Assembly: GCF_026210795.1 (NCBI RefSeq)
Contig: NC_089436.1
Span: 248,001-312,000 of the forward strand
DNA from: Rhizophagus irregularis
Taxonomy: Eukaryota
Reading direction: 5' to 3'
DNA: 64,000 nt
Shown: positions 14,265-40,299 of the stretch, in pieces
Layout of the letters: the number at the start of each line of letters is the position of its first letter
How positions within the stretch are numbered: position 1 is the stretch's first letter
Made by a program: the position numbers and the translations under genes
The notes under the pieces: generated by a model
What the model was told of the DNA's origin: nothing
Seen by the model: only the letters and a program-made list of their open reading frames with translations
Database searches by the model: none

Positions 14265-14346
14265 ACCCCGAGGTTCATATTTATTTTTTCTCATTCGAAT
14301 GAACAGGTAACTGAAGATTTATATTTTTTACAAAGTACAAAGAATC

Positions 14347-14817: not shown

Positions 14818-14910
14818 GCGGTTTCTGTATGAATTTAGTTTATATTTTTTATCCATATGTAATAGGCATACAGTAATTGAAGATAACTATAGTATAAGTA
14901 ACACAACATC

Positions 14911-15652: not shown

Positions 15653-15757
15653 TCATCAGGTATCCTCGTGTTTCGCGACAAGGACTGATGACCATGTAAC
15701 CTCATCATCAGGCATCCTCGCATTTTTTGACAAGGACTGATGATGATAAGGACTGAT
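15653..15757. repeat. Two tandem imperfect hairpin units plus a partial third; LINE target site
   Basis: TCATCAG..TCCT..AGGA.CTGATGA (15653-15691) and TCATCATCAG..TCCT..AGGA.CTGATGATGA (15702-15746), then GATAAGGACTGAT (15745-15757). Confidence 0.85.
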
Positions 15758-15860
15758 AGATCTCTTCCCGTCGATCTATTGACCAAAAATTTTCAGAAAG
15801 AAAATTTATATATCTTCGTACTAACAACTCTTATATTTTACCCAACTCATACCTTCTAAC

Positions 15861-17984
15861 ATGTCTAGAAACCTTGCTAGAAGAGGTGGCGGCAGCTATA
15901 ATCCTAATAGTAATAAGGCTGCTCGTCAAGAAAAGAAAAATAATAAAAAACAACTCTCCGATAACTCTGGCTCCGATAGTGATAGCACTACTCAAAAACG
16001 TTCCCGCATTATCACTGATAACACCATGGATGAAGATTTCGTTGCCGACGTGCCGGCTGACGGTGGTTTAGTTGGTTCAACTTCGACCGCTATTCCTCAA
16101 CAAAATAATTCCCGCAGCACTTCTCAAGAAAATACTCAAACTTCTACCCCGAAAAATTCTGCTGCGCCCACTGCGCCTGGCCAAGACACGTCCTCTGGAG
16201 CTAACGCGTCTATTCATGCACCACGAAACAAAGAAAATAACTCATCCCCTAACGCGTCCCTTAATATGGACGTAAATGATGGTACATCGCCCGATCAGGC
16301 TGCCGATCCCTCCCCAACTATTACCATTAATCGTCAAGATTTCCTGGCTGCGGCTGCGCCCAACTCTGCTCCCCAAACTCTTGAAAAACTTAAAACTAAT
16401 AAGGCAATCATAGATGCCGTTAACAACTTATTTTTAGAAACATACGAGTCGTATACCGGTCGGGCTCGTATGACTGGTTCAGGGGACGCTAAGCGTCTTA
16501 TCATTCACTTCCATACTGCGGAGGCTCGTGACATGTGTGTTGGTAGCACACACTCTGAATTTCCGGACCTACAATTCCACCTGTACGATCCCAAACAGCT
16601 CCGGTCAGATGAAGACCTCCGTGCAATTCAAGTTACGGATATACCGTTCTTTATTACTAAACTGCAACTCCAATCCTATTTCAAGAAATTCGGCAATCTC
16701 CTTGCCCTCCATCTTTATTCAAGGAAAGGTGCTAAGATGCAACAAGCTCGCATTGTCTATGATCACGCCGATGCCATCTCCCGCTTCACAAATCAATGGG
16801 CAGTTTACTGCTTTTCCACCTGCTTACGTGTTACCCCTTGCCATTACTCTTTAGATCAAAAAGCTGCTCGAAGAGCGTTCGTGGCTGTTCTCTCTGGACT
16901 TCCCGCTAATACTAAAGATATCCATCTCGCTCCTTTGGTCAAAGAACATGGAGCAAAAGCTATTAATATTCCCCTTTCCCTAAACTCTTATAAACCCAAA
17001 CCTTGGTCTTATATTACCTTCAACTCGCAAGAAACAATGGATGCCGCTATGGAGCAAACTATTGGTTTCCAAGGTCGTACTCTTCGATGGGGTACATCCA
17101 ATGATTCGAAAGCTCTTTGCCACCGATGTGGTAAACTCGGTTGTGCTCCTACCTCCTGCCCGCTTAATCAACGCCGAGGTCGTTCACGTACACGTGACCC
17201 TGTGGCTGCTCTTAAAGAACGTTTCAACATCGGCCATAGACCTGCCCAACAAAAAACGCCGCGCAACAATTCTCGTTCTCGTTCTCGGTCTAAATCTCAG
17301 GATCGTTCTGCTTCTGCTCAACGTTCTAATTACAATTCCAATAGCTCTAATACTAATGGTAATAACAATAACAATAACAAACCCTCCTCCTCTGGTTCAG
17401 CCCATTCCTCCTCATCTGCCCATGGATGTACACCTTCCAACAACCGTAAAGGCAAAGATAGATCTGTTTCCTTTTCGTCCAATGCTCGCGCTCCACTTCC
17501 TGATCCGAATTCTTCTAATGCCCTCGAGGCTGCCCTTAAGATACTTAACGTATTGCAAACTCTTCAACAAGATGTTGCACGTGTGGAATCTCGCATCTCG
17601 ACACTTGAACTTAACAATCAACGGCTGTCTGCTATTGAAGCTCACCTAGGCATCAATCCTCCCTCCGTACCTGTTGTCATTTCTAAACCTGATCGGATGG
17701 AAGAAGACCCTCCCGAAACTACTGGTACCTTAATCCCACATCCTAATGCTCCTTCGTCTTCTGGAACTATGAAATCCGCTCCCCCCAAATCTGCGCTTTC
17801 CAATGTTTCACATTCTGTTCCCATAACCAACTCCAACCCTTCCCCGCAAGATGAATTGAACTCTGTTATTCAAGATCAAAAAGCGATTAAAGATACCTTG
17901 CAATCGCTCACTGGTTCCATCCAAGGTTTTATTGCTTCTCTTGGTGGTTCTTCCTCCGATCGAGCTTTGGCTCCTTCGCAATAA
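15861..17984 (+). CDS. LINE ORF1 (RRM-like domains, Cys/His knuckle, RS-rich region, coiled coil)
   Basis: IQVTDIP...FKKFG and SYITFNSQE RRM-like patterns; CHRCGKLGC; intact 707 aa. Confidence 0.85.
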   Translation: MSRNLARRGGGSYNPNSNKAARQEKKNNKKQLSDNSGSDSDSTTQKRSRIITDNTMDEDFVADVPADGGLVGSTSTAIPQQNNSRSTSQENTQTSTPKNSAAPTAPGQDTSSGANASIHAPRNKENNSSPNASLNMDVNDGTSPDQAADPSPTITINRQDFLAAAAPNSAPQTLEKLKTNKAIIDAVNNLFLETYESYTGRARMTGSGDAKRLIIHFHTAEARDMCVGSTHSEFPDLQFHLYDPKQLRSDEDLRAIQVTDIPFFITKLQLQSYFKKFGNLLALHLYSRKGAKMQQARIVYDHADAISRFTNQWAVYCFSTCLRVTPCHYSLDQKAARRAFVAVLSGLPANTKDIHLAPLVKEHGAKAINIPLSLNSYKPKPWSYITFNSQETMDAAMEQTIGFQGRTLRWGTSNDSKALCHRCGKLGCAPTSCPLNQRRGRSRTRDPVAALKERFNIGHRPAQQKTPRNNSRSRSRSKSQDRSASAQRSNYNSNSSNTNGNNNNNNKPSSSGSAHSSSSAHGCTPSNNRKGKDRSVSFSSNARAPLPDPNSSNALEAALKILNVLQTLQQDVARVESRISTLELNNQRLSAIEAHLGINPPSVPVVISKPDRMEEDPPETTGTLIPHPNAPSSSGTMKSAPPKSALSNVSHSVPITNSNPSPQDELNSVIQDQKAIKDTLQSLTGSIQGFIASLGGSSSDRALAPSQ

Positions 17985-18031
17985 CTGACTTCTCACTTCC
18001 TTTCCCCGTACTTTATTATCATTGTGCTCTA

Positions 18032-21000
18032 ATGTCAGACAATTTTAATTATGATACATTTGTTCGTAACCCACCCAACCCCGTAGCTACTTATAATTTT
18101 TCAGAACATGAATCTTTATTTACTACCACAAATTCTTCTCCTATCCCTAATTCTTTTAATATTTCATCCTTTAATGTTAATGGTCTTCGCTATAATAGCC
18201 AAGTTAAAATTGAACAAATTTCAAATTTTTTCAATCTTAAACATATTTCATTTGGTGGTATCGTAGATACCCATTTATCCCCTAAACAAATTCATTTCTT
18301 ATCTAAACGCCTCCCTAATTACACTGTATTTTCATCTGATATAGATAAAACTAAACAAGTTAAATCTACTGGTGGCGTTTCCCTTTTCATTGAAAAATCT
18401 TTTGCTTCACACGTACAAGATTTTGTTTCACATTCCTCACGTATTTTATCTGTTGATCTTTATTTTAAAGGCAACGTTAAATTGCGTATTTTTGTTATTT
18501 ACATTCCCCCTGTTTCTGATTCTAAATTACGATCGGAAACCATTGACCTTCTTCTACAATTATTAGTGCAAACTAAACAACAAAATTTTTATCATGCCAT
18601 TTGTGGCGATTTCAATATGCACTTAGATGCCTATTATCCTATTTATTTTAACCGCCCTTCTGTTGCTTCCCAACGAACTTATCGTTTGCTACACCATCTT
18701 TTATCTCATGGATATGAAGAAACCATTCCTGTTAATGCTTCTGATTCCTTAGGCACCTTCCACCGAGACGATCAAGTTACTCGTATAGACTATGTTTGGT
18801 CTTGCCCAATGCTGAAAAGCTTTGCTCTCACCTCCTATATATTTGACGCTCAGGACACCTGCTTTTCCGATCACAATCCCATCATCACTTATTTCGATGA
18901 ATCACTCTTGTTCGCGTCTATCAAGGTTGCTCGCGCTAAACAACTTCAACGTCGAACTCGCCGTATATTCAAATTCAATTCAGTCACTGATCAGCAATGG
19001 GAATCTTTTTCTACTCATACTGATTCTTTATGCAACGAACCGCCGTCATCCTTCTCAACTTGGCATATTAATCAACAATGCGAATATTTACATTCTCGTA
19101 TAGTGAAAGCTGCTAATGCCTCTCTTCCATCCGTCCTGGTTGGCAATCAACATACGCCTACAGTGCCTAAAGAATTGGAAGCCCTAACTCAACATTATCG
19201 TTTCCTCAGCCGTCTTTTGCATTCGATACGTTTATTGCGAAAATATCCTTCTACTTATTATAATAGACATGAACGTACTTGGTCCACCCATTTCATTAGA
19301 CTTCAAAAGATTCTTCATCTTTATAAGAAGGTTATTCCTTCTCCCCCTATTTTACCTTCTTCTTTATCCTCATGTAGGCAAGACGATTTTAAATTCTTAC
19401 TGGAATCTTTAAAAACTATCTCCAGTGCCCTCCATGGCTTTCTTCTTTTCAAAGAAAAAGATTTTCAAGACTCTTCCATTCGTGCTAAATTGGACGATAG
19501 GGACAATAATTTTGAAACCGATATTTCCTCCTTTATTAATTCTGCTCTCTCAAGGACTCGACGCCGCATCACCTTGGATCGTATTTTCATCGACCACCCT
19601 ACACAACCAAAACTTTTAACAGACCCGCATGATATTGACGACGCTGTTATCAATCATTTCCAGAATTCCGTCCCTATAAAATCTTCTCCCCCGGATAATA
19701 TTTCCATTCTCCCGGATAGATGGTCTTCTGCTTATCGCCCTATGGATGATGTGGATTCTTCTGTTTACAACTCCTTGTTGGATCCTCCTACCCTTGAAGA
19801 ATGGTTGTCTACGGTCTCCTCGATGCCAAATGATAAAGCTTCTGGTCCCTCTATGATCACCTATGAGATGCTTAAACATCTGGGTCCCGTCACTTCAGCT
19901 TTGGTTCTAATCCTGGTACAATCGTGCCTTCGCACCGCTGATATTCCTGATTTATGGCGTCAAGCTATGGTTTTCCCCATCCCTAAACCTCACGAATGGA
20001 AATGTCAACTCAAAAATACCAGACCTATTACTTTACTTGAAGTAATTAGGAAATCTTTGGTTAAACTTTTTTATAATCGTCTCGCTTCCATTTTGGCTTC
20101 AAATAAAATTCTCAAAGGTGGTAACTTCGCTGGTCTCCCTGGTGGTTTTTGTCGCAACCCTATTGTCGTCCTGGAATCTATTATCCATGATGCTCATGTC
20201 AACAAATCACCGCTTTGGATCCTTTCGCAAGATATTTCAAAGGCTTTTGACTCGGTTGATCTCAAGATGTTGCGTTTCGCTCTTGAACGCATTAAACTTC
20301 CTGCTACAGCTATCAAGTTTATTCTATCCCTTTTCATGAAACGCTCTAATCACGTTTTTACTGCTCATGGTATTACTCCTTCTTACCGTGTTCGCATTGG
20401 TATAGATCAAGGCGAAGTTATCTCTCCTTTACTTTGGGTTATATATATAGACCCTTTATTGACGGTTCTTAAGAATGAAATGATGGATCCATATACACTT
20501 CATGCTCCCTCTTTATCTAATCCCTTGGCTGAATCAAATTCAAATGATTTACGAATTAACAACTTGGTCTTTATGGATGATTCCACTTTAATTTCATCAT
20601 CCAAATCTGGAATGGAATCGATGCTCTCTATTACGGAAGAATTTTATCAAATCAATAATACTTCCGCTAACCACAGCAAATATGTTTTAATTACTAATTC
20701 GTTGCCTCCCACTTCAGTTTTTTCGCCTTCTCCAGTCGTGTTTGACTTGCAATTATCCGGTTTGAACAAAGTTCCTTCCATTTCTATTGTGCCTATCTCC
20801 ATAAATAGCTCTTTTCGCTTCCTGGGCGTCTGGTTTAATGTCGCTGGATCTCGCGATTTCGTCAAAAAGCAAGTTGCTAGAGAATGCAACTCCTTCGCCG
20901 CTACTGTTCGCCTGCCAAATTATCTGCTAAACAAGTAGTTTATTTACACAATACCGTCCTTATTCCGAAATTGGAATATCGCATGCAAGTCACTCACCTC

Positions 21001-23652
21001 TCCGAATCTGAATGTGCCTTGGCAACCAGCAGTATCCGTTCCCTGGTTAAACACAAGGCCAATTTTTCACGTGTACTCCCAGATTCTATTTTGTTTTTAT
21101 CTTAAGGCTTGGGCTTGATTAATTTATTTTTTCACCAGTCACAAACACATTTAACTAATTTATTTTTATTAGCTAATTCTTCCTCTTCTTTTATGAAAAA
21201 TTTATTTTTATATAGATTACGTTTAATTCAATTTTCTTTTTTGATTCCTATTTCCCCGTTGTTAGTTAAAGATTGGACTATATGGTCTAAACTTTTTGCT
21301 TTTAAACAGGATTATATCGCTTGCACTATTGCTCTCCTGACCACAACTCCGTTTGAGTTGTCGCATTCACGTCTTTCAACTTTGCCTGACCTGACTCTAC
21401 CTGATGGTCATACACCTTTATTTGACATTATGACTCCTAATATTTTTATCTCTTACTTCCGACGTCTTAGAAGTTTGCATCTATATTACCTATCTCAATT
21501 TATTACACCCCAAGGAACCCATATGATTACTTGGAATGTTTATTTATCCCGTCTATCAAGTAGAAAAGGTCATCGAGTCCTCCCCCATAAATGGTTCAAT
21601 GACATCAGCCAATGTGTCACTGTTCCAAATTCCAATTCTCTACTCTTGGATCAATTTTCTTCTGATGCTTTTCCTTCAGACATTGATTTGGTTCCAGCTT
21701 TTGGTTCCTCCAGGAAATCCATGAAATGGATCGTGACTTTGGACGAAGATGGCTCTCCTCTTTTTGGAAAACAACTCAGCAAACAACAATATTCATGCAA
21801 GATTGTCCATTGGACCTCTGATTGTGTGACTCGCCCTAATGACGTTATTACGCTCACTCCTTGTCCTGGTTGTTCTAAACATGTACCGACTACTCATACT
21901 AAAAATAATCCAGCAGATGTTACTCCTTTATGTATCATCCCAAAACTTTCTCCTCTTAGATCTTTAATCCTTCCAACATCGCAGGAGCGTATTAGAAATG
22001 ACACTACCGCCATTACTTCTCCCTTTACTTGGGCGGACCTTGATGAAATTGTAAGATCATATTATGGTCGTTTGGACATTCAACCTAATTTTTCACAAGC
22101 AGATGTGGTTACTTTCCCTTCTCCTTCTCTTCCTTCTTTTTTGGACTCGGCTGCCTCTCTTGCTTTTGCTGCCTCACCGTTAGCGACCCCTCCTGATAAT
22201 CATTATTGTTTTTATACTGATGGTTCTTTAATTAACCTTGGCACTCCTGATGTTTCAATGGGTTGGTCTTGGGTTCAAGTCCTAGATGGTGCTGGTTTTT
22301 TCCAATCTATCGCTGCTTATGCTCATGGAATTATTCACAATTGGCCTTCCTCTACAAGAGCTGAAACCGCTGCTATACATGCCGCCCTTACAGTCACTCC
22401 TCCTTCTTCAACGGTCACTATTTATACTGACTCTCAATCAGCCATAGATGGTCTTCGTCTATGTGCTTCTTCTTCTTATTCCAATAGTAGGCTTTATTAC
22501 AAGACCACCAATTTTGAACTTTGGGCTATTATTGAACATCTCATTTCCTCCAAGTCTTTATCCGTCACGACTGTTAAAGTGAAAGGTCACTCTGGTAATT
22601 TTTACAATGACTATGCGGACTCCTTGGCCAACTCTGCACATACTTCTTCCTCTGCAATCCTTCTTTCTGATCTGGATCAAGTATCTCCTCACGATTTTAT
22701 ATTAAAATATGATGATATTTTATGCGAATCCAACCCACGATGCCTATTCAAACAATATTCGCAGATGCTGTGGATGCATAGATTAACGCATTTGTCGCGT
22801 TTTATCTTTACTAGTACTTTATCTTCCATTCCAGATTTCGTGATTGATTGGGATCTCACCTGGTTCTCTTTGAACTCTGAACCTCAGCACGATGCCTCTT
22901 TTACCCGAGCTCATGCTTCCTCTCATCACACCTTCAAATTCAAACTCTTTTTGGAAGATTTACCTACTTTGGAATATCTCAAAAGAATTCGCCCGGACTT
23001 GTATATCGATATTTTATCATGTCGTTCATGCCTCGACTCCAAGGAAGATTTCATGCATTTGTTTATGTGCAAATGTAGACGAATCGCTATGGAACAGATT
23101 CTCCTCTCATACCAAAATCACTTTATCAACAAACTTCAAGAAGCTGGTGATCTCGTTAAGAAAGATCCCTCTTTAATTATTAACAAATTTAAATCTCTTT
23201 CTTGTTGGTCCTTTTCTTCTTCAAATTGGACTTCATATAGTCTTGTCCGTGGCTGCCTTCCGATATCCTTTGTCGAATTTTTTGAAGAACTTTCTATCCC
23301 ACGTAATTCTGCGATGAAGGTTATCTCTGCTATCTACAACCATTTTATCCAAAAGATCAGAAAACGAATTTGGCTACCGCGCTCCTATGATAAATCAAAA
23401 TGGGAAGACGCGATGAATATCACCCATAAACTCAAACTTTCTCGGCCTTCAAATTTGCCAAAGTCTACGTACTTACCTTTCTCAACTTTACCTCCTCCGA
23501 CCCTTTCCGACGCCGCACGTGACTCCGACGTTGATTATTTAAAGAACTCGATGAAATATGGTTTGCCTTGGTTTAATCACTATTCGGGTTTTATGGGTCG
23601 TCTAACGGTGCAACTTACTAACAGCTTTAGCAGGGTGGTGTGTCGATTTTAA
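18032..23652 (+). pseudogene. LINE ORF2 (AP endonuclease, RT, RNase H, Zn finger), disrupted
   Basis: SFNVNG, GDFN, RIDY, SDH; QGEVISP, FMDD; FYTDGS, YTDSQ, VKGHSG. 1-bp deletion near 20910 and TAA at 21103-21105 relative to copy 2. Confidence 0.9.
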
Positions 23653-24043
23653 TAATGGGCGCATTATTCGTTGGTTTGTTTGCATAGTTGCTTCTTCTTA
23701 GGTTGGAATATATCTAGGCGGGGGATCAGGATAGTTTTAGTGTTATGCGATTTTTTCCTTTTCGAATTAATTTTATAGCTTTATTACTGTTTTGGAGACT
23801 ATATAGTTTTATTTTTAGTTATTTTTATTTTTCTACTTTTGTACTTTAAAAAAATTTTATGTTATTTTTGTAAGTTCGATAAATAAATTTAATAAAGATA
23901 AAGGCTACTATGCCATGTTTGCCTTGACAAGGACTGATATAGATCTCTTCCCATCGATCTATTGACCAAAAATTTTCAGAAAGAAAATTTATATATCTTC
24001 GTACTAACAACTCTTATATTTTACCCAACTCATACCTTCTAAC

Positions 24044-26167
24044 ATGTCTCGAAACCTTGCTAGAAGAGGTGGCGGCAGCTATAACCCTAATAGTAACAAG
24101 GCTGCTCGTCAAGAAAAGAAAAATAATAAAAAACAACTCTCCGATAACTCTGGCTCTGATAGTGATAGCACTACTCAAAAACGTTTCCGCATCATCACTG
24201 ATAACACCATGGATGAAGATTTCATTGCCGACGCGCCGGCTGACAGTGGTTTAGTTGGTTCAACTTCGACCGCTATTCCTCAACAAAATAATTCCCGCAG
24301 CACCGCCCAAGAAAATACTCAAGCTTCTACCCCGAATAATTCAGCTGCGCCTACTGCGCCTGGCCAAGACGCGTCCTCTGGAGCTAACGCGTCTATTCAT
24401 GCACCTCGAAACAAAGAAAATAACTCATCCCCTAACACGTCCCTTAATATGGACGTAAATGATGGTACATCGCCCGATCAGGCTGTTGATCCCTCCCCAA
24501 CTATTACCATTAATCGTTAAGATTATGTGGCTGCGGCTGCGCCCAACTCTGCTCCCCAAACTCTTGAAAAACTTAAAACTAATAAGGCAATTATAGATGC
24601 CGTTAACAACTTATTTTTAGAAACATACGAGTCGTATACCGGTCGGGCTCGTATGACTGGTTCAGGGGACGCTAAGCGTCTTATCATTCACTTCCATACT
24701 GCGGAGGCTCGCGACATGTGTGTTGGTAGTACACACTCTGAATTTCCAGACCTACAGTTCCACCTGTACGATCCCAAACAGCTCCGGTCTGATGAAGACC
24801 TCCGTGCAATTCAAGTCACAGATATACCATTTTTCATTACTAAACCACAACTCCAATCCTATTTTAAGAAATTCGGTAATCTCCTTGCCCTCCATCTTTA
24901 CTCAAGGAAAGGTGCTAAGATGCAACAAGCTCGCATTGTCTATGATCACGCCGATGCCATCTCCCGTTTCACGAATCAATGGGCAGTTTACTGCTTTTCC
25001 ACCTGCTTACGGGTTACCCCTTGTCATTACTCTTTAGATCAAAAAGCTGCTCGAAGAGCGTTCGTGGCTGTTCTCTCTGGACTTCCCGCTAATACTAAAG
25101 ATATCCATCTCGCTCCTTTGGTCAAAGAACATGAAGCAAAAGCTATTAACATTCCCCTTTCCCTAAATTCTTATAAACCCAAACCTTGGGCTTATGTTAC
25201 CTTCAACTCGCAAGAAACAATGGATGCCGCAATGGAGCAAACTATTGGTTTCCAAGGTCGTACTCTTCGATGGGGTACATCCAACGATTTGAAAGCTCTT
25301 TGCCACCGATGTGGTAAACTCGGTTGTGCTCCTACCTCCTGTCCACTTAATCAACGCCGTGGTCGCTCACGTACACGTGACCCTGTGGCTGCTCTTAAAG
25401 AACGTTTCAACATTGGCCAAAGGCCCGCCCAACAAAGAACGCAGCGCAATAATTCACGTTCTCATTCCCGGTCTAAATCTCGGGATCATTCTGCTTCTGC
25501 TCAACGTTCTAATTCCAATTCCAATAGCTCTAATACTAATGGTAACAACAATGGCAATACCAAACCCTCCTCCTCTGGTTCAACCCACTCCTCCTCATCT
25601 GCCCATGGATGTACACCTTCCAACAACCGTAAAGGCAAAGATAGATCTGTTTCCTTTTCGTCCAATGCTCGTGCTTCACTCCCTGATCCGAATTCTTCTA
25701 GTGCCCTTGAGGCTGCCCTCAAAATTCTTAATGTCTTACAATCACTTCAACAGGACGTTGCTCGTGTGGAATCTCGCATCTCGTCCCTTGAACTTAATAA
25801 CCAACGGCTCTCTGCTATAGAAGCCCATTTAGGCATTAATCCTCCTTCTGTTCCTGTCGTTAATTCTGAACCTGATCGAATGGAAGAAGACCCTCCTGAA
25901 AACACTGGCACCCTAATTCAACATCCCAATGCTCCTTCATCTTCTGGTCCAACGAAATCCTCTTCTCCTAAATCTCAACCCGACAAGACTACACACTCTG
26001 CTCCCACTTCCACCGCTAACCCTTCCCCGCAAGATGAATTGAACTCAGTTATTCAAGATCAAAAAGTGATTAAAGATACCTTACAATCGCTCACTGGTTC
26101 CATCCAAGGTTTTATTGCTTCTCTTGGTGGTCCTCCCTCTGATCGAGCTTCTGCTCCTTCGCAATAA
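24044..26167 (+). pseudogene. LINE ORF1, copy 2, one in-frame stop
   Basis: TAA at 24518-24520 where copy 1 has CAA. Confidence 0.88.
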
Positions 26168-26214
26168 CTGACTTCTCACCTCCTTTCCCCGTACTTTATT
26201 ATCATTGTGTTCTA

Positions 26215-29200
26215 ATGTTAGACAATTTTAATTATGATACATTTGTTCGTAACCCACCCAACTCCGTAGATCTTATAATTTTTCAGAACATGAATCTTTA
26301 TTTACTACTCCAAACTCTTCCCCTATCCCTAATTCTTTTAATATTTCATCTTTTAATGTTAATGGTCTTCGCCATAATAGCCAAGTTAAAATTGAACAAA
26401 TCTCTTTTTTTTTCAATCTTAAACATATTTCATTTGGTGGTATCGTAGATACCCATTTATCCCCTAAACAAATTCATTTCTTATCTAAACGCCTCCCTAA
26501 TTACACTGTATTTTCATCTGATTTAGATAAAACTAAACAAGTTAAATCTACTGGCGGCGTTTCCCTTTTTATTGAAAAATCCCTCGCTTCTCATGTACAA
26601 GATTTTGTTTCGCATTCCTCACGAATTTTATCTGTTGATCTTTATTTTAAAGGCAACATTAAATTTCGTATTTTTGTAATATATATTCCTCCCGTTTCTG
26701 ATTCTAAATTACGATCAGAAACCATTGACCTTCTTTTACAATTATTAGTGCAAACTAAACAACAAAATTTTTATCACGCCATTTGTGGCGATTTCAATAT
26801 GCATTTAGATGCTTATTATCCTATTTATTTTAATCGCCCTTCTGTTGCTTCCCAATGAACTTATCGTTTGCTACATCATCTTTTATCTCAAGGATATGAA
26901 GAAACTATTCCCGTTAATGCTTCTGTTTCCTTAGGCACCTTCCACCGTGGTGATCAAGTTACTCGTATAGACTATGTTTGGTCTTGTCCAATGCTGAAAA
27001 GCTTTGCTCTCACCTCCTATATATTTGATGGCCATGACACCTGCTCTTCCGATCACAATCCTATCATCACTTATTTTGATGACTCACTCTTGGCTGCGTC
27101 CATCAAGGTTGCTCACGCTAAACAACTTCAACGCCAAACTCGCTGCATATTTAAATTCGATTCAGTCACTACTCAACAATGGGAATCCTTTTCTACTCAT
27201 ACTGATTCTTTGTGCGACGAACTGCCATCAACCTTCTCAACATGGCATATTAATCAACAATGCGAATATTTACATTCTCGTATAGTGAAAGCTGCTACTG
27301 CCTCCCTTCCATCTGTCCTGGTTGGCAATCAACATACGCCTACGGTGCCCAAAGATTTGGAAGCCCTAACTCAACATTATCGTTTCCTCAGCCGTCTTTT
27401 GCATTCGATACGTTTATTGCGAAAATATCCTTCCACTTATTATAATAGACATGAACGTACTTGGTCCACTCATTTCATTAGACTTCAAAAGATTCTTCAT
27501 CTTTATAAGAAGATTATTCCTTCTCCCCCTATTTTACCTACTTCTTTATCCTCATGTAGGCAAGACGATTTTAAACTTTTATTGGCATCTTTAAAGACTA
27601 TTTCCGATGCCCTCCATGGTTTCCTTCTTCTCAAAGAAAAAGATTTTCAAGATTCTTCCATTCGTGCCAAATTGGAAGATAGGGACAATAATTTTGAAAC
27701 CGATATTTCCTCCTTTATTAATTCTGCTCTCTCAAGGACTCGATGCCGCATCACCTTGGATCGTGTCTTTATCGACCATCCTACACAACCTAAACTTTTG
27801 ACGGACCCGCATGATATTGATAACGCTGTTATCAACCACTTTCAGAATTCCGTTCCTATAAAATCATCTCCCCCTGACAATATTTCCGCTCTTCCAGATA
27901 GATGGTCTTCTGCTTATTGCCCTATGGACGATGTGGATTCTTCTATTTACAACTCCTTGTTGGATCCTCCTACCCTTGATGAATGGCTGTCTACGGTCTC
28001 TTCGATGCTGAATGACAAAGCTTCTGGTCCTTCTATGATTACCTATGAGATGCTTAAGCATCTGGGTTCCAATACTTCAACTTTGGTTCTAATCCTGGTA
28101 CAATCATGCTTTCGTACTGCTGATATTCCTGATTTATGGCGTCAAGCTATGGTTTTCCCCATCCCTAAACCTCACGAATGGAAATGTCAACTCAAGAATA
28201 CAAGACCTATTACTTTACTTGAAGTAATCAGGAAATCCTTGGTTAAACTATTTTATAATCGTCTAGCTTCCATTTTGGCTTCAAATGAAATTCTCAAAGG
28301 AGGTAACTTCGCTGGTCTCCCTGGTGGTTCTTGTCGCGACCCTATTGTCATTCTGGAATTTATTATCCATGATGCTCATCTCAACAAATCGCCGCTTTGG
28401 ATCCTTTCACAAGATATTTCAAAGGCTTTTGACTCGGTTGATCTTAAGATGTTGCGTTTCGCTCTTGAACGCATTAAGCTTCCTGCTACTGCTATTAAGT
28501 TTATTTTATCTCTTTTCATGAAACGCTCTAATCGCGTTTTTACTGCTCATGGAATTACCCCTTCTTACCGTGTTCGCATTGGTATAGACCAAGGCGAAGT
28601 TATTTCTCCCTTGCTTTGGGTTATATATATAGACCCTTTATTGACTGTTTTTAAGAATGAAATGATGGATCCATATACACTTCATGCTCCCTCTTTATCT
28701 AATCCCTTGGCTGAGACAAGTTCAGATGAATTACGTATCAACAACTTGGTCTTTATGGATGACTCCACTTTAATCTCATCATCCAAATCTGGAATGGAAT
28801 CGATGCTTTCTATTACAGAAGAATTTTATCAAATCAATAACACTTCTGCTAATCACAACAAATATGTTTTAATTACTAATACGTTGCCTTCTACTTCAGT
28901 TTCTTCACCTTCTCCAGTCGTGTTTGACTTGCAATTATCTGGATTGAACAATGTTCCTTCCATTTCTATTGTGCCCATCTCCATGAATAGCTCTTTCCGA
29001 TTCCTAGGCGTCTGGTTCAATGTCGCTGGATCTCGCGATTTTGTCAAAAAGCAAGTTGCTAGAGAATGTAATTCTTTCGCTGCTACCGTGCGCCCTGCCA
29101 AATTATCTGCTAAACAAGTAGTTTATTTACACAATACCGTCCTTATTCTGAAACTGGAATATCGCATGCAAGTCACTCACCTCTCCGAATCTGAATGTGC

Positions 29201-31835
29201 TTCGGCAACCAGCAGTATCCGTTCTTTGGTTAAACATAAGGCCAATTTTTCACGTACACTCCCAGATTCTATCTTGTTTTTATCTCAAGGCTTGGGATTG
29301 ATTAATTTATTTTTTCATCAATCACAAACACATTTAACTAATTTATTTTTATTAGCTAATTCTTCTTTTTCCTTTATGAAAAATCTATTTTTATATAGAT
29401 TACGTTTAATTCAATTTTCCTTTTTGATTCCTATTTCCCCATTGTTAGTTAAAGATTGGACTTTATGGTCTAAACTTTTTGCTTTTAAACAGGATTATAT
29501 CGCTTGCACTATTGCTCTCCTGACCACCACTCCTTTTGAGTTGTCACGTCCACGACTTTCAACCTTGCCTGACCTTACTATACCTGATGGTCATACACCT
29601 TTATTTGATGTTATGACTCTAAATATTTTTATATCTTACTTCCGACGTCTTAGAAGTTTGCAACTTTATTACCTATCTCAATTTATTACACCCCAAGGAA
29701 CCCATATGATTACTTGGAATGTTTATTTATCCAATCTATCAAGTAGGAAAGGTCATCGAGTCCTCCCACATAAGTGGTTCGTTGACATCCACCAATGCGT
29801 CACGGTTCCAAATTCCAACTCTCTGCTCTTGGATCAATTCTCTTCCGAAGCTATTTCTTCAATTATTGATTTGGTTCCAGCCTTTGGTTTCTCCAGAAAA
29901 TCCATGAAATGGATCGTGACTTTAGACGAAGATGGCTCTCCTCTTTTTGGAAAACAACTCAGCAAACAACAATATTCTTGCAAGATTGTCCATTGGACCT
30001 CTGATTGTGTGACTCGACCTAATGATGTTATCACGCTCACTCCTTGTCCTGGTTGTTCTAAACATGTACCGGTTTCTCATACTAAAAACCAACCATCCGA
30101 TGTTACTCCTTTATGTATCATCCCAAAACTTTCTCCACTTAGATCTTTAATTCTCCCAACAACGCAGGAGCGTATTAGACATGACACCACCAATATTACT
30201 TCTCCCTTTACTTGGGCAGACCTTGATGAATCTGTACGATCATACTATGGTCGTCTGGACATTCAACCTAATTTTTCACAAGCAGAAGTGGTTATTCTCC
30301 CTTCTCCTTCTCTCCCTCCTACTCTGGACTCGGCTGCCTCTCTTGCTTTTGCTGCCTCCCCGTTAGCGACTCCTCCTGACAACCATTATTGTTTTTATAC
30401 TGATGGTTCCTTAATCAACCTTGGCACTCCTGATGTTTCAATGGGTTGGTCTTGGGTTCAAGTCCTAGATGGCGCTGGTTTTTTCCAATCTATCGCTGCT
30501 TATGCTCATGGAATTATCCATAATTGGCCTTCCTCTACAAGAGCTGAAACCGCTGCTATACATGCCGCCCTCACAGTCACTCCTCCTTCTTCAACGGTCA
30601 CTATTTATACTGACTCTCAATCAGCCATAGATGGTCTTCGTCTATGTGATTCTTCTTCTTATTCCAATAGCAGGCTTTATTACAAGACCACTAATTTTGA
30701 ACTCTGGGCTATTATTGAACATCTTATCTCCTCCAAGTCTTTGTCAGTCATGGCTGTTAAAGTGAAAGGTCACTCTGGTAACTTTTACAATGACTACGCG
30801 GACTCTTTGGCCAACTCTGCGCATACTTCTTCTTCAGCAATCCTTCTCTCTGATCTGGATCAAGTATCTCCTCACGATTTCATATTAAAATATGATGATA
30901 TTTTATGTGAATCCAATCCTCGACGCCTATTCAAGCAATATTCGCAAATGCTGTGGATGCATAGATTGTCGCATTTATCGCGTTTTAACTTTATTATTAC
31001 TTTATCTTCCATTTCAGATTTCGTGATTGATTGGGATCTTACCTGGTTCTTATTAAACTCTGAACCTCAACACGATGCCTCTTTTACTCGTGCTCATGCT
31101 TCCTCTCATCACACCTTCAAATTTAAACTCTTTTTGGAAGATTTACCAACTCTGGAACTTCTTAAAAGAATTCGCCCGGACTTGTATATCGACATTTTAT
31201 CATGTCATTCGTGCCTCGACTCCAAGGAAGATTTCATGCACTTGTTTATATGCAAATGTAGACGAATCGCTATGGAACAGATTCTCCTCTCCTATCAAAA
31301 ACATTTTATTAACAAACTCCAAGAAGCTGGTGATCTCATTAAAAAAGATCCGTCTTTAATTATTAATAAATTTACATCTCTTCCTTGTTGGTCCTTCTCC
31401 TCTTCAAATTGGACCTCTTATAGTCTTGTCCATGGCTGCCTTCCAAAATCCTTTGTCGAATTTTTTGAAGAACTTTCCGTTCCACGTAACTCAGCGATGA
31501 AGGTTATCTCTACTATCCACAATCACTTTATCCAAAAGATCAGAAAACGCATTTGGCTACCGCGCACCTATGATAAATCAAAATGGGAAGACGCGATGAA
31601 TATCACTCAAAAACTTAAACTTTCTCGGCCTTCTAATTTGCCAAAGTCCACGTACTTACCTTTCTCCACTTTACCTCCTCCGACCCTTTCCGACGCTGCA
31701 CGTGACTCTGACGTTGATTATTTAAAGAACTCGATGAAATATGGTTTGCCTTGGTTTAATCACTACTCGGGTTTTATGGGTCGTCTAACGGTGCAACTTA
31801 CTAACAGCTTTAGCAGGGTGGTGTGTCGATTTTAA
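26215..31835 (+). pseudogene. LINE ORF2, copy 2; 5' lesions, RT-RNase H part open (26868-31835)
   Basis: Frameshift near 26270 and TGA at 26856-26858 where copy 1 has CGA; same domain motifs as copy 1. Confidence 0.9.
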
Positions 31836-32187
31836 CAATGGGCACATTGTTCGTTGGTTTGTTTGCATAGTTGCTTCTTCTTAGGTTGGAATATATCTAG
31901 GCGGGGGATCAGGATAGTTTTAGTGTTATGCGATTTTTTCCTTTTCGAATTAATTTTATAGCTTTATTACTGTTTTGGAGACTATATAGTTTTGTTTTTA
32001 GTTAATTTTATTTTTCTTTTTGTACTTTAAAAATTTTTATGTTATTTTTGTAAGTTCGTTAAATAAATTTAATAAAGATAAAGGCTACTATGCCATGTTT
32101 GCCTTGACAAGGACTGATGACGATGTCACTTGGTTATTGTAAATTGAAGATAACAATTAGGTATGTAGACACGTACAGAAAAAAGAC

Positions 32188-32772
32188 ATGTCATACCCTT
32201 ATATAACTAATCCTATAACCGGACGTCCAATCCGTGTTGGTGGAGATACCTTTAATCGAATAGTTATGGAATCCCATGATTATATCGATGGAAGGCTTGT
32301 CCGTAGACAAACCGCACCGCCTCCACCCCAGGAACAACCTGTATATTTAAATACAGATACAGGACGCTATATTCAACACGGTACTAGAACGTATCATAGA
32401 CTGGTTGAGAGTGACTATGAGGTAGTTGAGGATTACTACCTTGTCCATTATGAAGAAGAGGCGCTTATAGAGGAAATCATCAATGAAACACGCTATAATG
32501 AGGAAAATCTTGATAGCCAGCGGTTAACTTTCAATGATATACAACAAATCAGGGCCGCTATTCAGACTGACCAAGATGAATATGATGATTTTATATTACA
32601 GCAAGATACGACTAACGGGACACCTTCCTCCGGTCCTTCCGGTCATCCACGAACTTTGAAGGACCATGCCCCGAGACTTGCAGAGCTTAATATCGAGTTG
32701 TGTAGGGAATGTCTCATGCCTGTAAGCCCAAGTGACTTAACGGACAAGTTATGCAAGGACTGCGCTTTCTAA
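32188..32772 (+). CDS. Protein with two 2-cysteine-adaptor-like repeats and C-terminal Zn ribbon
   Basis: NPITGRPIRVGGDTFNRI and NTDTGRYIQHGTRTYHRL; CREC...CKDC. Confidence 0.65.
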   Translation: MSYPYITNPITGRPIRVGGDTFNRIVMESHDYIDGRLVRRQTAPPPPQEQPVYLNTDTGRYIQHGTRTYHRLVESDYEVVEDYYLVHYEEEALIEEIINETRYNEENLDSQRLTFNDIQQIRAAIQTDQDEYDDFILQQDTTNGTPSSGPSGHPRTLKDHAPRLAELNIELCRECLMPVSPSDLTDKLCKDCAF

Positions 32773-32787
32773 TGGTTAGTCCTCCTG

Positions 32788-32830
32788 TCCTCCGGTCCTC
32801 CGGTCCTCCGGTCTTCCGGTCTTCCGGTCT
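32788..32830. repeat. 8-bp tandem repeat C(C/T)TCCGGT, about 5 copies
   Basis: Directly visible downstream of the 32772 stop. Confidence 0.8.
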
Positions 32831-32956
32831 TTCCAACGGTTGATCCCTTAATGCCAGTTTTTTTTTTTTCTACAAATGACAGGTATTTAAAGATAACAAT
32901 ATATAAAAAAGATTGTGAAGGATACTAAGTGAGCGAACAATCAAAGAAAGATAGCT

Positions 32957-33516
32957 ATGTCAACATCAATCGTAATAAACCAGTGTCAGAACTGTGGAGT
33001 ATTCTCTGCAAAAGCGGCATATAGAGGATTATCCAGCGTGTTGTATAGACAGATTATAAAGAAGATTGGCGACGAGAGTGAACCTTTACAAGCCTTGGGA
33101 CTTGCCAGGGATAAGTTGGTCCAGATTATTCGTCGGGCAAGTAATGCGGATTTTACACAATTATTCACACAAAGACTGGATATGAAAATTATGGACGGAG
33201 ATTCATACGAGGATACTAGGAAGTGGTTTCTTGAACAGCTTATAGCCATTGGATGTGACAGTGGGGAAATTGCCTTATATCAGTTCTTACAGAATACATA
33301 CCCGGATGGTATTGACGAACCCTTTACTACATTCTATGAGAACTATGTAAGTCATGTAAGAAATCCGATGACTAAGAACTTTGCTTCTCGAGCCTTAGGA
33401 GCTATTGGGTTAAAAGCTAGGATGCTACGGATTGACTTCGAAGGACGTAAAAAAGCGCCATGATTCTTAGGGCTTCTGAGGAAGAACTTCGCGAGATTCT
33501 TACAAAATACTATTGA
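32957..33516 (+). CDS. Protein paralogous to the helicase C-terminal (winged-helix-like) region; probable 1-bp frameshift near the end
   Basis: LYQFLQNTY...FYENY...PMTKNFASRALGAIGLK aligns by eye with helicase LFQFIKDTY...FYRVY...PLSKINASRILSNELGIK; as sequenced stops at 33463, one more A at 33449-33454 extends it to 33516. Confidence 0.6.
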
Positions 33517-35438: not shown

Positions 35439-36906
35439 CTGCCCCCATATTTCATGGTCGGGAAGATGAAGATCTTAATCTTTTTATTGATAACTTTTTA
35501 GGGTATATTAATACCGTTGGTATTGATCCATTGGACGATGCTGGTGTACCCCCTGGTCGGGTGAGAGCGATGGGGGTTCTTCGTAGCTGTATGAGAGATG
35601 AAGCGGCGAGGTGGTTTGATGCAGAACTTACTGGAAAAAATTGGGAACTCTCGAATATTCGGTTAGTGGCTGCTGCAAATGGTGGAGTCAGTGCCACTCG
35701 CCGAGCATTCAGAGCTTTGGCTGTTCCTGAGGTTGCTAATGGATTACATGTTGGTACTTACTTACCTGGGTCTGATGCTGATGCATTTTCAAGGATTGCA
35801 GGTAATGCGGCGGTAACCGTTGGAGATGCATTTTTCCCATCACGCGCTGATATCGTTAGAACGAATTTTAAAGTTGAAGAGCAGTGGAGGCGTGCGGGCG
35901 GACGTCCTACTCATCAACCCGTTAATGGGTTGGGAAATCATGGAGGTCCATTTAATGCTGCTGTTCAGAATCAACCGATAGTCTTACAGGGGATTCTCCT
36001 GGATCAAGCATTTATGCATATGCGCACAAATTTTCCAACCGTTGTGGAAGAAAGACTTCAAATACGATTTAGTAACCTTTACCAGGAACAAGGTGAACCT
36101 GTTCGATCTTACTATAAGCGAGTTGAGAGGGCTGGGATATTGTAGGATATAATCAAATTATGGTTACTGACCAGTTCTATAGAGGACTTTTGCCGGAAAA
36201 CGTTATTGAAGCTTCCAGAATCGGGGCGGCACCTCTTAATATATTAATCGATAGATTGAGTGATCTTGAGCGATGAAAGGGCGAAATGTTCTATGGATTA
36301 CAAAGGCGTCAGGGTATTGAAAAGGCTAAAAAAGAGGAATTGGCTGGCTATACTCATCCCGTGACTCCACACGAAGGTGCTGTAATGCAAAGGTCGACAG
36401 ACGTTATTACTCAAGAACGATTACAAGAATTGCTTAAGACACAGGCCGAGGAACTTACCAAGAATTTCCAGGCGCAATTTAAACAATTACAAGCATTTAA
36501 ACCAGTTCGTAAACCACTGGTCTATAGACAACAGATTAAACCTGTTCGACCAAAACCACAGAGACGTGTTGTTCAGGATCATCAGGATCCTGATTGGGAT
36601 GATGGTTATGTAGATCATGATGTTGGTGATGACCCTGATGCTCCTGAATGGACTAGTGAGGATGATCAACATGTTATTGATCTTATTATGGGATATGAGA
36701 CGTCTAAAAGATTTCCAAAGCGACTTCAGAAGGCTAAAGATAGACGCGATGATTTGGAATTAGCCCGAGCAATGAGAAACCTCGATCTTAATGATGATGC
36801 TATGGATATTGATACTAATACCGCGAGTTTTGATGACTTGAAATTTGTTCCCGATGAGGAAGGTGGTTTTCGGATTTGTGCGGTTCGAAGTACAAAAAAA
36901 AAGTAA
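35420..36906 (+). pseudogene. gag: Ty3/Gypsy-like Gag (capsid) gene with two lesions
   Basis: APIFHGREDEDLNLFIDNF start, AARWF, MHR-like LYQEQGEPVRSYYKRV; a 1-bp shift near 36142 gives LGYNQIMVTDQFYRGLLPE; TGA at 36274-36276 is in frame with the 36286-36906 ORF. Confidence 0.7.
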
Positions 36907-37625
36907 ACTCGGATAAGGGTGTAAGTATCTCGAAACTTCTTAAATCTGTTCCAAAAAAATCAGTTAAAATGACTCCTATTAAGATTCCTGTGAAGGTTAC
37001 TAGTAGTAAGCCCACACTTATAAAAGCTGTCACCAAAAATAATTCATTAAGTTTATTAAGGTCTGCAGATTTTAGGAAATTACTCCGCGAGATTCTTTGG
37101 GAAGAATTAAAGTCTGCTCGTAAAAGTACGGAGATTCTGGAAGACCTAGTTGAGGAAAAACAAGAAGAGGATATTAGGGAAGATGACCCAATGGATATTG
37201 ACATAGTTCGTTTGGAGAATACTAAAGATCTTTTAGCGCTGGATGGGGAGGTCAATGGGATAGCAATTCAGTGTTTAGCAGACACTTGTGCTAACGCGTC
37301 TTTTATTCAGAGAGAAGCCGCTGAGGAATTAGGGTTGGATATCGACAAGAGTATTACACATAACATATCCGGCGCTCCGGGTTCTGGTAGGACATTCGGC
37401 ATGGTAAAAGGTGTGTCAATCAAACTAACCCCTGATTGTGTAATTACTGAGAATCTCGCGGTTTTAAGCGATTACAAGCATAGGGAGATTGGATTGAGCC
37501 GGACGTGTCTGAAACGTTACAATTATGATGTCCATGAATCACGTGAACATATCGCCCTTACTTGTAATGAGAAGAATGTTTTTATCCCGATAGTTTCTGA
37601 CGTGAATCGAGGAGACAAAAAATAG
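36876..37625 (+). CDS. Retropepsin-like aspartic protease, in -1 frame relative to Gag
   Basis: GEVNGIAIQCLADTCANASFIQREAAEELGL, flap-like ISGAPGSGRTFG; DTC instead of DTG. Confidence 0.75.
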   Translation: MCGSKYKKKVNSDKGVSISKLLKSVPKKSVKMTPIKIPVKVTSSKPTLIKAVTKNNSLSLLRSADFRKLLREILWEELKSARKSTEILEDLVEEKQEEDIREDDPMDIDIVRLENTKDLLALDGEVNGIAIQCLADTCANASFIQREAAEELGLDIDKSITHNISGAPGSGRTFGMVKGVSIKLTPDCVITENLAVLSDYKHREIGLSRTCLKRYNYDVHESREHIALTCNEKNVFIPIVSDVNRGDKK

Positions 37626-37639
37626 GGAATATTTATTTT

Positions 37640-38731
37640 TTATTCCCAAAACTTGCGGATTAAAGCAGGGACATCCTCCTCCAACCGGTCAGCGGGTTCC
37701 CAAGTGGCTTCAGTATCTGGGTATCGTTCCCACTTGACTAGATACTGGTCTTGACCCTTCCTGATGCGATGCCGGAGTATCCGCTCAGGTACAAATCTTT
37801 CAGGTTGCCCTCTTATCACAGAGTCAGGTGGGGGATATTCATTTTCTGGAACAATCTGCAACTCTTTTCGGGTGTACGCACATCTGGATACACCTAGTCG
37901 CCCGTGTGGTCCATCAAGAAGATACGTAGGAGGTTGTTCGGGTGAGAGTATCATTTTTTTGATGACACGGATATTGGGATTCCATCTTATGTCTCCTGTA
38001 CGAAATTTTCCATGGAGTTTATTACCGAGTACTGAGATAGGTTCATCTAACTTTACTCGAACACGCGTTCCTTCAGAGAGAAGTTCCGTCTTTTTTGACA
38101 CCTTGGGTGACCCAGTCGGAATATCTGGAGGATTTCTTTGCCAGATTTCATCTATTTTATTAACTACATCATGGAAATCTTCTGACCATTCCACGGATGT
38201 CACCCTGGTCTTCAACTCCTGTGCCACCATTCGTTTTAGGAGAGGCTCCTGGATCGCTTGGATAGCTCGTTCAGCGTATGATTGCTGTTTGTGTCTTCCC
38301 GACTCTCCAAACCTCATCATCACCCCTAGGCTGTTCAGGAAAAAATCACGTACCTGATCATTGGTGAATTCTGATCCGGAGTCTGTCTCCATTCGATGTG
38401 TTGGTGGTTTAATGCGATTTCTTCTGTAGATTTTAACAAATCCATTGAGAACCCTATTTGCAATCTTATCCTTTAGGGGTTCTGCGTCAACTCGTTTACC
38501 CGCAACTTCCACCACTACGAGAAAATAGTGGAATCCTTTGGGGTCGACTGGCATCTCTGCGAGATCTGCCTGATGCGTCGCATTTGGTTTCCATACAACT
38601 ACTCGTGGACGCTCTGATGACTTTTCCTTTAGGGGCTTTTTGTATAGGTTGTAGTGCTCCTCACCTTTTAGAATTCGTGCTGGTACTCTGGAGAGATTGT
38701 AGTATTTGTAGTAATTCTCTAAATGCGACAT
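37640..38731 (-). CDS. int: Retroviral-type DDE integrase with C-terminal chromodomain
   Basis: HQADL, ETDSGSEF, YAERAIQ triad; ERILRHR...YLVKWERYPDTEATWEP chromodomain; first ATG at 38731. Confidence 0.92.
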   Translation of the reverse strand: MSHLENYYKYYNLSRVPARILKGEEHYNLYKKPLKEKSSERPRVVVWKPNATHQADLAEMPVDPKGFHYFLVVVEVAGKRVDAEPLKDKIANRVLNGFVKIYRRNRIKPPTHRMETDSGSEFTNDQVRDFFLNSLGVMMRFGESGRHKQQSYAERAIQAIQEPLLKRMVAQELKTRVTSVEWSEDFHDVVNKIDEIWQRNPPDIPTGSPKVSKKTELLSEGTRVRVKLDEPISVLGNKLHGKFRTGDIRWNPNIRVIKKMILSPEQPPTYLLDGPHGRLGVSRCAYTRKELQIVPENEYPPPDSVIRGQPERFVPERILRHRIRKGQDQYLVKWERYPDTEATWEPADRLEEDVPALIRKFWE

Positions 38732-38775: not shown

Positions 38776-39096
38776 ATGACACGATTTTACTGCCTAAAGT
38801 GTAAGAAGGAAACCGAGACTGCTAGTGAAATACAAGATATGACCACAAATGGGCGTTACCGGCTGCATATTGATTGCACAGTTTGTGGTATGCATAAGAA
38901 TACTTTTACTGGGATAGACTGGGTTATCAAAAAGAAAACCAAGGAGAAGAAAAAAGAAACCGCGGCTAAAAGACATCAGACGGCGTACAATCGGCAATGC
39001 AAAAAACTCAGGCAGAAAATCTTAGATTCTGATGACACGTGTAAGCAGTGTATTGATAAATGCCTTAAGGAGGCAAAAAAGAGGAAGACGGATTAG
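38776..39096 (+). CDS. Small basic Zn-ribbon protein (DUF5679-like)
   Basis: ATG at 38776; YCLKCKKET...CTVCG; CKQC..C near the end. Confidence 0.7.
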   Translation: MTRFYCLKCKKETETASEIQDMTTNGRYRLHIDCTVCGMHKNTFTGIDWVIKKKTKEKKKETAAKRHQTAYNRQCKKLRQKILDSDDTCKQCIDKCLKEAKKRKTD

Positions 39097-39105
39097 TACC
39101 GCCTT

Positions 39106-39621
39106 CTAAAAGTATTCCTCATCATCTGAGTCATCGAGAGATACCTCTCCATCATCTGATTCATCATCCGAGTCGTCAGGAGTGCGACCTTCCTTAAGCA
39201 ATTGGATGTTGTACGTTATTTGAGTCCATTTCTCCCAGTCGGACTCTTGCGTTATAAAGTCGCATCTGAGAAGAGCTTTTTCTACTGCCACCATTCCTGC
39301 GAACCTAGTGTATTTTTTCTGATCGGCTTCAATGAAATCATCAACGGCTTTCCTGTAGTGGTCTACCGCCCTGTCGTATTTCTCCTTGGCTTCTTTATAT
39401 CGCTTCCACAACTCGGCTTTACAACCATTGTACCAGAGTCTGTTTATCTTGAGATGTTTTCCGAATTCTTTGATCGGAAGGTTTCTGACCATCTCTCTTA
39501 CTATATCCGGGTCATTGAGGGGCGATGCCCGCATTTGGATCCATTTACGGATTCCATAGATGTCTACAAGATCAAGTCCGAGGTCTTCAGCAAGAGAAGT
39601 GGCGGCGTGTAAGTTTATCAT
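39106..39621 (-). CDS. Hypothetical protein, 171 aa, acidic C-terminus
   Basis: Intact ATG ORF starting 11 bp inside the right TIR boundary. Confidence 0.65.
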   Translation of the reverse strand: MINLHAATSLAEDLGLDLVDIYGIRKWIQMRASPLNDPDIVREMVRNLPIKEFGKHLKINRLWYNGCKAELWKRYKEAKEKYDRAVDHYRKAVDDFIEADQKKYTRFAGMVAVEKALLRCDFITQESDWEKWTQITYNIQLLKEGRTPDDSDDESDDGEVSLDDSDDEEYF

Positions 39622-39631
39622 TGTATGTTAC

Positions 39632-40112
39632 TTATAGTTACCTAATCTTCAATTGCCGAATATATTTTTTCCAAAGATCCGCGCTCCTACCCAGTTACCC
39701 TCCTGCGGTTCTACAGGCCTTCTAGGGGCTATTGACCTACCTGTTAACTTGGTTTGCTATCTCATTGCTTCCAATAGGAAAATGAATGGAATCCTGTACG
39801 TGTGGAAAATGTGGAAGATGTGGAGGATCTGGGGGGTAAAATCAAAACTTTTTTCTGGGGGAACCCTCTCCCAATTTTTTTAAAACGTCCTCCACATCCT
39901 CCACATCCTCCACACTCTTCTGATTCCCTCTTATTTTCCTCTCTTTTCCCTTATTTTATCCTTTTTTGTTATATATTTTTGTGGAGGATCTATGTGGAGG
40001 ATTGTGGAGGATCTATGGGGATTTCCTGTCCCACGGAGGGGAGATGTAGGTACTGCGAGGCCATGGCCGAGGTGGGGTGAGCGCAAGCGAGACACACTAC
40101 CAGCCCGATGAC
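39632..40112 (-). repeat. Right terminal inverted repeat
   Basis: Reverse complement of 8715-9196; ends CAGCCCGATGAC. Confidence 0.95.
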
Positions 40113-40299
40113 ATTGGTCGAATAATGCACTAATTAAACGTCACGCGTATTTAAAGTTTAAAAAAGGATCATCTTTTTTAAACTCCCCTTTCCCCTTCCA
40201 CTTTCCCTCCTTTCGTTTGTCCTCCCTTTCCCTTTCGTCCTTCCCTTCCCCTTTCGTTCTCCCCTTTTCTCACACCTTCTTCCGCCTCTTTTTCTTGGA

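Follow-up and report, generated by a model that had tools for sequence, protein, structure and literature searches.

How do gag and protease genes that lie in different reading frames give rise to both proteins, and what role might such genes play in a DNA element? We addressed these questions for a locus in the window, a stretch of 64,000 nucleotides from Rhizophagus irregularis (contig NC_089436.1, positions 248,001 to 312,000), for which an earlier note had proposed a programmed -1 ribosomal frameshift between Gag and protease, driven by a slippery heptamer and a possible stem behind it.

Anatomy of the element and of its gag-protease module

The element at 8715-40112 is a complete Polinton of about 15 kb without its inserts and, as two LINEs were inserted into it, the element proper measures 15.0 kb (Table 1). 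The features of Polintons/Mavericks are present, namely long terminal inverted repeats, a 5-bp target-site duplication (5-6 bp in Polintons/Mavericks), PolB, an rve integrase and an A32 ATPase. The match of PolB to PF03175 (25.1 bits) lies slightly below the cut-off of 25.8; its motif A reads DATSLYP and its motif C HTDG. A jelly-roll major capsid protein, a penton and a cysteine protease were not found among the element's ORFs by Pfam or PHROG, and each ORF left without assignment in these sequence-profile searches is below 230 aa, which is short for a double jelly-roll protein. Nor was a reverse transcriptase found in the element, the LINE inserts apart, and the self-comparison contained no direct repeats (LTRs) flanking the gag-protease module.

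Table 1. Features of the element and its flanks, in positions of the window
Feature	Positions	Strand	Remarks
Target-site duplication ATTGG, left copy	8710..8714		5 bp
Left terminal inverted repeat	8715..9196	+	482 nt; 98.3% inverted match to 39632-40112 (self-comparison)
D5-like primase-helicase, 837 aa	9226..11739	+	PF19263 E 2.7e-17; PHROG primase E 8e-15
Family B DNA polymerase (PolB), apparently protein-primed, 617 aa	11823..13676	+	PF03175 E 1e-5
Three small ORFs (164, 156, 92 aa)	13770..15189	+	92-aa ORF weakly F-box-like
Two tandem LINE retrotransposons, inserted, foreign to the element	15744..32120	+	93% direct repeat over 8.2 kb
Two small ORFs (194, 168 aa)	32188..33463	+	194-aa ORF with weak 2-cysteine adaptor match
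A32-like packaging ATPase, 407 aa	33500..34723	-	PF04665 E 2.7e-10
Coiled-coil ORF, 227 aa	34755..35438	+	Overlaps Gag start
Gag, about 495 codons	35420..36906	+	Predicted retroviral-type capsid domain; broken here
Candidate shift site: A9, G, stop TAA	36894..36906	+	Heptamers A AAA AAA (36894), A AAA AAG (36897)
Linker in the -1 frame, with a basic segment, a long helix and an acidic segment	36903..37190	+	Without conserved start codon
Stem of the earlier note	36909..36933	+	Not supported (folding, shuffles)
Putative retropepsin domain, -1 frame, triad D-T-C	37191..37625	+	PF13650 E 4.5e-8
rve integrase with chromodomain	37640..38731	-	PF00665 E 1.8e-7, PF00385; tail to tail with protease
DUF5679 ORF (+, 106 aa) and 171-aa ORF (-)	38776..39621
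Right terminal inverted repeat	39632..40112	-	Partner of 8715-9196
Target-site duplication ATTGG, right copy	40113..40117		5 bp

A GC3 of 0.24-0.35 sets the coiled-coil, gag and protease ORFs apart from helicase, PolB, ATPase and integrase, at 0.41-0.43, which suggests that the former three make up a module of separate origin. The nearest named proteins come from Rhizophagus irregularis itself (identity up to 96-98%), with relatives in R. clarus and Entrophospora. A search of viral contigs yielded no relative of the protease, PolB or ATPase and, for the integrase, two weak loci (L004 and L005, 35% over 43 aa), which we set aside; a search of genome contigs found no relative. The linkage of gag and protease to PolB and the terminal inverted repeats is drawn from the window copy alone, and the convergent chromo-integrase end after the protease recurs in two metagenomic loci, L001 and L002. 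One database gene model, P0128, joins ATPase antisense sequence to the coiled-coil ORF.

Some features of the element stand apart from the gag-protease module. The tandem LINE pair, whose ends carry a 15-nt duplication (15729 and 32106), is located at a repeated motif, GACAAGGACTGATGA (15677, 15729 and 32106), a recurrence that suggests site-preferring insertion. The ATPase gene holds an 11-nt tandem repeat at 33891-34053 that encodes a repeated FDPSLNPVRSP-like peptide. Finally, the motif YTGAA (often AATTGAA), picked post hoc, precedes 10 of the 13 ATGs of element ORFs by 20-60 nt, against a background of 7%, and is possibly a core promoter.

The gag of the window is broken twice, by a change of frame near 36133 and by a TGA in frame at 36274-36276, and so this copy is itself unable to make Gag or Gag-protease; contigs of other copies are free of both breaks. 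The structure model is that of P0122, a relative from the databases that shares 98% identity with the N-part of Gag. This model is confident at residues 420-482 only, with a pLDDT below 50 for residues 169-417, which makes the N-terminal domain unreliable. Residues 420-482 matched the capsid C-terminal domain of PEG10 (probability 1.00, rmsd 2.1 over 70 columns, E 0.26) and the capsid domains of HTLV-1, HIV-1, MLV, HERV-K, RSV and FIV (Z 9.0-9.8, rmsd 1.9-2.6, 67-74 residues). A Z near 9 is modest for helices, yet all listed matches confined to residues 420-482 are retroviral capsids, and no jelly-roll fold is among the structure matches listed for the Gag model. Gag is thus predicted to fold like a retroviral capsid C-terminal domain, and the ESM Atlas features give retrotransposon Gag at 0.90, as a lead. 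The longest of 99 Gag matches, in a search without length restriction, has 840 aa; a zinc knuckle is absent from the Gag of this lineage and present in 4 of the 99 distant matches.

The model of the -1 ORF (pLDDT 76) comprises a helix and a retropepsin, with the Ddi1 retropepsin fold as a match at E 1.4e-8, and we take the protease to fold like a retropepsin on the strength of this model; a sequence search of the PDB with the protease alignment gave weak Ddi1 matches only. The triad at 37280-37290 is D-T-C, and DTC or DSC, not D-T/S-G, is found in 111 of 120 matches. With this triad in place of DTG, the protease is a putative active enzyme. The ORF ends at 37625, and 104 of 106 relatives, from a search limited to 140-447 aa, end no more than 45 residues past the YNY motif.

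At 35400-35438 the end of the coiled-coil ORF runs past the Gag ATG, in -1 phase. In the distant relatives P0381, P0390 and P0400, which also have a CCHC knuckle, a single frame holds coiled coil and Gag, and the overlap is possibly a second site of recoding or a split of one gene.

The Gag/protease junction and its conservation

Gag ends in ACA AAA AAA AAG TAA, with nine A at 36894-36902 and the stop at 36904-36906. The protease frame is -1 to Gag and open from 36858 to 37625. Thus, the A9 run, the heptamer A AAA AAG, the Gag stop and the open -1 frame described earlier were all confirmed. Both A AAA AAA, at 36894-36900, and A AAA AAG, one codon later at 36897-36903, are in-phase heptamers. 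Sites of the form X XXY YYZ are common in themselves (969 in the window), and only one A-run of at least 8 occurs in the 15-kb element, that of the shift site.

The second half of the proposal, a stem behind the heptamer, was not supported. The stem can be drawn (dG -3.4 kcal/mol); on average its pairs reach a probability of 0.002 in the window, of 0.25 in L001 and of 0.00 in L002. Folding of the 3' region gave z scores of -0.17 to +1.26 in six folds of the window and 0.27 to 1.61 in five folds of L001 and L002, relative to shuffles. In a crude scan for a 3' pseudoknot 107, 94 and 43 of 200 shuffles did better than the natural sequences, and Rfam has nothing close to threshold around the junction. 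Since no stimulator was found, the shift site is not of the classical form, and of the proposed -1 programmed junction the conserved site and frame offset stand, whereas the model of a heptamer plus a stable 3' structure is unsupported.

The earlier note had also named two outcomes that would speak against its proposal, namely other copies with gag and protease in one frame, and a protease starting at its own ATG near 36969; neither check refuted the junction. Other copies mostly keep A9 and the -1 offset: the sequence A9-G-TA(A/G) and the offset recur in 3/3 other loci (L001, L002 and L003, from metagenomes), with L001 and L002 sharing 79% protein identity. We then took A-run lengths from Logan contigs of four DNA-type runs (X1, X2, X6 and X8), each from a different study. 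The listed lengths other than A9 amount to 2.3% of depth in X1, 19% in X2, 0% in X6 (where one contig spans the stretch) and 6% in X8, shares that overstate A9, as contigs ending within the run are counted in the total. In-frame alleles occur, A10 at 0.7-3.4% and A7 at 11% in X2 and 14% in X4, a run of possibly RNA or DNA.

These data bear on another reading of the offset, as a homopolymer error or as a mutation private to one copy of a gag-pro gene that is otherwise fused. Such an origin would suit a window copy that is decayed at two further sites, and in-frame A7 and A10 alleles do occur, as does P0381, a distant single-frame coiled-coil-Gag-knuckle-protease that runs counter to universality of the junction. 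However, the offset is shared by all three other loci and by short-read contigs of four studies, the stop after the lysines is found in Gags 24-55% alike, and the minor alleles are near background decay, given that other homopolymers of X2 lose a base at 7-9%. This explanation is largely refuted and hardly credible. As a separate observation, the A7 allele at 36894, with 11-14% of depth in X2 and X4, perhaps marks a fused sub-lineage.

More distant relatives were assessed at the protein level, in the 99 matches, which are representatives of clusters at 50% identity; by a motif rule written after the C-termini had been viewed, 27 of them reach the end of Gag, and the full-length Gags (n=12) are 24-55% identical. 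Of those reaching the end, 18/27 end exactly in KKK or KKR and 24/27 have KK within the last 8 residues, leaving three with neither (P0351, P0394 and P0403). The KKK/KKR end occurs in 0/72 of the other matches, and its internal rate is 0.00035 per site. From these lysines we infer an A-run in distant relatives, the DNA itself coming from close relatives only, and the lysine-run endings constitute the strongest evidence for a conserved junction. Straight read-through was found in none of the 140 database gene models that hold both parts, a highly redundant set. Overall, conservation renders a programmed -1 Gag/protease junction well supported.

The frame behind the A-run appears to be coding as well. 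The -1 frame has no stops in 96 codons in 4/4 loci, compared with 6-13 stops in the other frames; the indels between A9 and the protease (27, 3, 9 and 3 nt) are all multiples of 3, and changes in this interval fall on the third codon position 30 times versus 13 and 12 at the other two. Among three sequences, the basic segment has a dN/dS of 0.29-0.59, the helix one of 0.04-0.16 and the protease one of 0.08-0.14. Judged from these patterns, the -1 frame directly behind the A-run is coding and under purifying selection.

This has consequences for a protease made separately from its own ATG, at 36969 or 37191. Both ATGs are present in the window and the Met at 37191, the only conserved one, is conserved widely; a Met at the 36969 position, in contrast, is found in 10/47 proteins and is lost in L001 and L002, and the helix 5' of 37191 is under purifying selection. 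YTGAA precedes neither protease ATG, though the motif was picked post hoc. We regard separate initiation as very improbable: the ATG at 36969 is poorly kept and a constrained helix precedes the one conserved Met, so that entry of ribosomes has to be from Gag.

Two further observations concern the stretch just behind the A-run (36903-37080), where dS is 0.28-0.43 compared with 0.42-2.4 further on, and which includes 26 nt that are identical across four loci. Either constraint at the RNA level or recent recombination might produce such a pattern.

Candidate mechanisms of the frame change

-1 ribosomal slippage is the usual gag-pro solution and, as the site is in phase and the stop follows directly, we consider structure-independent -1 ribosomal slippage on the A-run before the stop to be the best mechanism and, on balance, a somewhat probable one. 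Most ribosomes would stop at the TAA and release Gag, while a minority would slip back one base at the A9-G-stop to produce a Gag-protease fusion. Two lysine tRNAs would shift their pairing along the A-run, with A AAA AAA as the likeliest place, aided by slow decoding of the A-tract and by the stop right behind it, and without a stable 3' structure. The low share of Gag-protease would then set the timing of Gag cleavage. The window copy being dead for Gag, this process is assigned to intact copies elsewhere. The accessible text of PMC5009743 describes A AAA AAG as very slippery in E. coli, which has one lysine tRNA; the motifs that it gives as shiftiest on mammalian ribosomes do not include this heptamer, and sliding on A-runs is also mentioned there.

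Three lysines are kept, which is beyond the need of the heptamer and points to the length of the run as the signal. This fits slippage of RNA polymerase too, in which one A would be added on the A9 template and an A10 mRNA would be translated normally into Gag-protease. The lack of a 3' structure at the junction suits this alternative, as do endings with KKR after Q (P0328 and P0347), in which nine A would be preserved in a different phase. Eukaryotes have two lysine tRNAs. The dnaX gene of T. thermophilus, a host that likewise has two, uses polymerase slippage, according to the same partially available source (PMC5009743). On the other side, no A10 is among the 12 best-supported indels of X4, which is possibly an RNA run and has 52 further indels below these, an absence weakened by contigs dropping rare variants. 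Nine A are, moreover, short for slippage by eukaryotic polymerase II, and altogether we hold polymerase slippage to be unlikely.

Alternative splicing could also join the two frames, with a donor at A9/GTAR and the stop within the intron, so that retention would give Gag and splicing Gag-protease. A donor-like GTAAAC or GTAGGC and a matching in-phase acceptor (TAG/TAAGCC, 104-134 nt off) are kept in all four loci, which makes splicing a real rival, and each of the 141 database models links the two parts via apparent introns, which in 6 models lie at the lysine run. Yet these models use at least 8 different junctions, as is typical of predictors jumping a frameshift, and the candidate intron has no stop in the -1 frame (expected by chance at 5-14% per locus) and triplet indels only. 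Its SISKLLK peptide is retained across lineages ~60% alike; KKKT in the -1 frame of the P0096 cluster would leave no GT behind the run; and in 6/24 Gags the stop lies 1-4 codons past the lysines, uncoupled from the run. X4 has no GT-AG joint, a weak point against splicing. RNA-type contigs X18, X19 and X20 have zero depth at 36875-36941, and X19 contains a joint from 36816 to 36975, the sequence between being undefined. Taken together, we rate splicing as quite improbable, and more than 100 database gene models probably span the junction via invented introns. If ribosomal slippage is the mechanism, the junction may be a eukaryotic case of A-tract recoding that is independent of structure.

Known systems and a possible exchange of capsids

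With Polintons/Mavericks the element has in common the features listed above and a size of ~15 kb; it differs from them in its Gag, retropepsin, -1 junction and D5-like helicase, and the jelly-roll capsid and cysteine protease were not found in it. In the available part of PMC7805220, the Polinton of Glomus intraradices (Rhizophagus irregularis) has no detectable major capsid gene. Two preprints, each accessible in part, group the A32 ATPases of Glomus/Rhizophagus with Mavericks-Polintons (bioRxiv 10.64898/2026.06.19.733378) and count Mavericks among the recently expanded families in Rhizophagus (bioRxiv 10.1101/2021.03.30.436303). The legend of Fig. 5 in Starrett et al. 2021 (PMC8502044) presents a 'related element' with Matrix/Capsid/NC/Pro and a D5-like helicase, which, going by this legend, is probably of the same family. 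The accessible text of that paper leaves the element undiscussed, uses 'frameshift' once, for another locus, and offers no analysis of capsid fold, conservation or recoding for the 'related element'; the accessible part of its supplement does not mention Rhizophagus, Gag or frameshift, and its annotated maps could name the element. The Rhizophagus Polinton and probably its gene set are already known. No account of a Gag-protease frameshift or capsid replacement was found in the literature covered, whose scope did not extend to the original Polinton papers, Repbase and subscription journals.

Retroviruses and Ty3/gypsy elements with -1 frameshifts at gag-pro or gag-pol, and PEG10-like capsids, share with the element the capsid fold, the retropepsin, the -1 offset and a nearby stop. 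Unlike them, the element has no detected reverse transcriptase, RNase H or LTRs, its integrase is on the opposite strand, its shift site is an A-tract and not A AAA AAC or G GGA AAC, a stimulatory structure was not found, and its lineage has no zinc knuckle. As for dnaX, the genes of E. coli (A AAA AAG) and T. thermophilus (polymerase slippage) have the same heptamer or an A-run and two products per gene, in the portion of PMC5009743 available; their tRNA context is bacterial and their shift shortens the product, unlike the junction described here.

The Rhizophagus Polinton is seemingly capsid-less, and a different capsid may be the answer, one that can be tested. We tentatively propose, as a possibility that we would not yet expect to be borne out, that a DNA virus lineage of arbuscular mycorrhizal fungi swapped its jelly-roll virion for a retroviral-type Gag shell with a frameshift-dosed protease, packaging linear dsDNA without reverse transcription, and that it could pass from nucleus to nucleus and from hypha to hypha in the coenocytic fungus. 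The Gag shell would replace the missing jelly-roll capsid and carry the linear element DNA with the integrase. A conserved junction with a low yield of Gag-protease would be expected under selection for particle assembly. If true, the element would be a chimera of Polinton replication and a retroelement capsid, a self-replicating dsDNA. How the A32 ATPase acts with a retroviral-type lattice is unexplained by such a shell.

Outside the element, the window contains further repeats. Just beyond the right terminal repeat, at 40300-41430, lie ~10 units of 110-130 nt that are rich in short palindromes, and two more tandem-repeat arrays, at 3400-4090 and 55350-57110, have no relation to the element.
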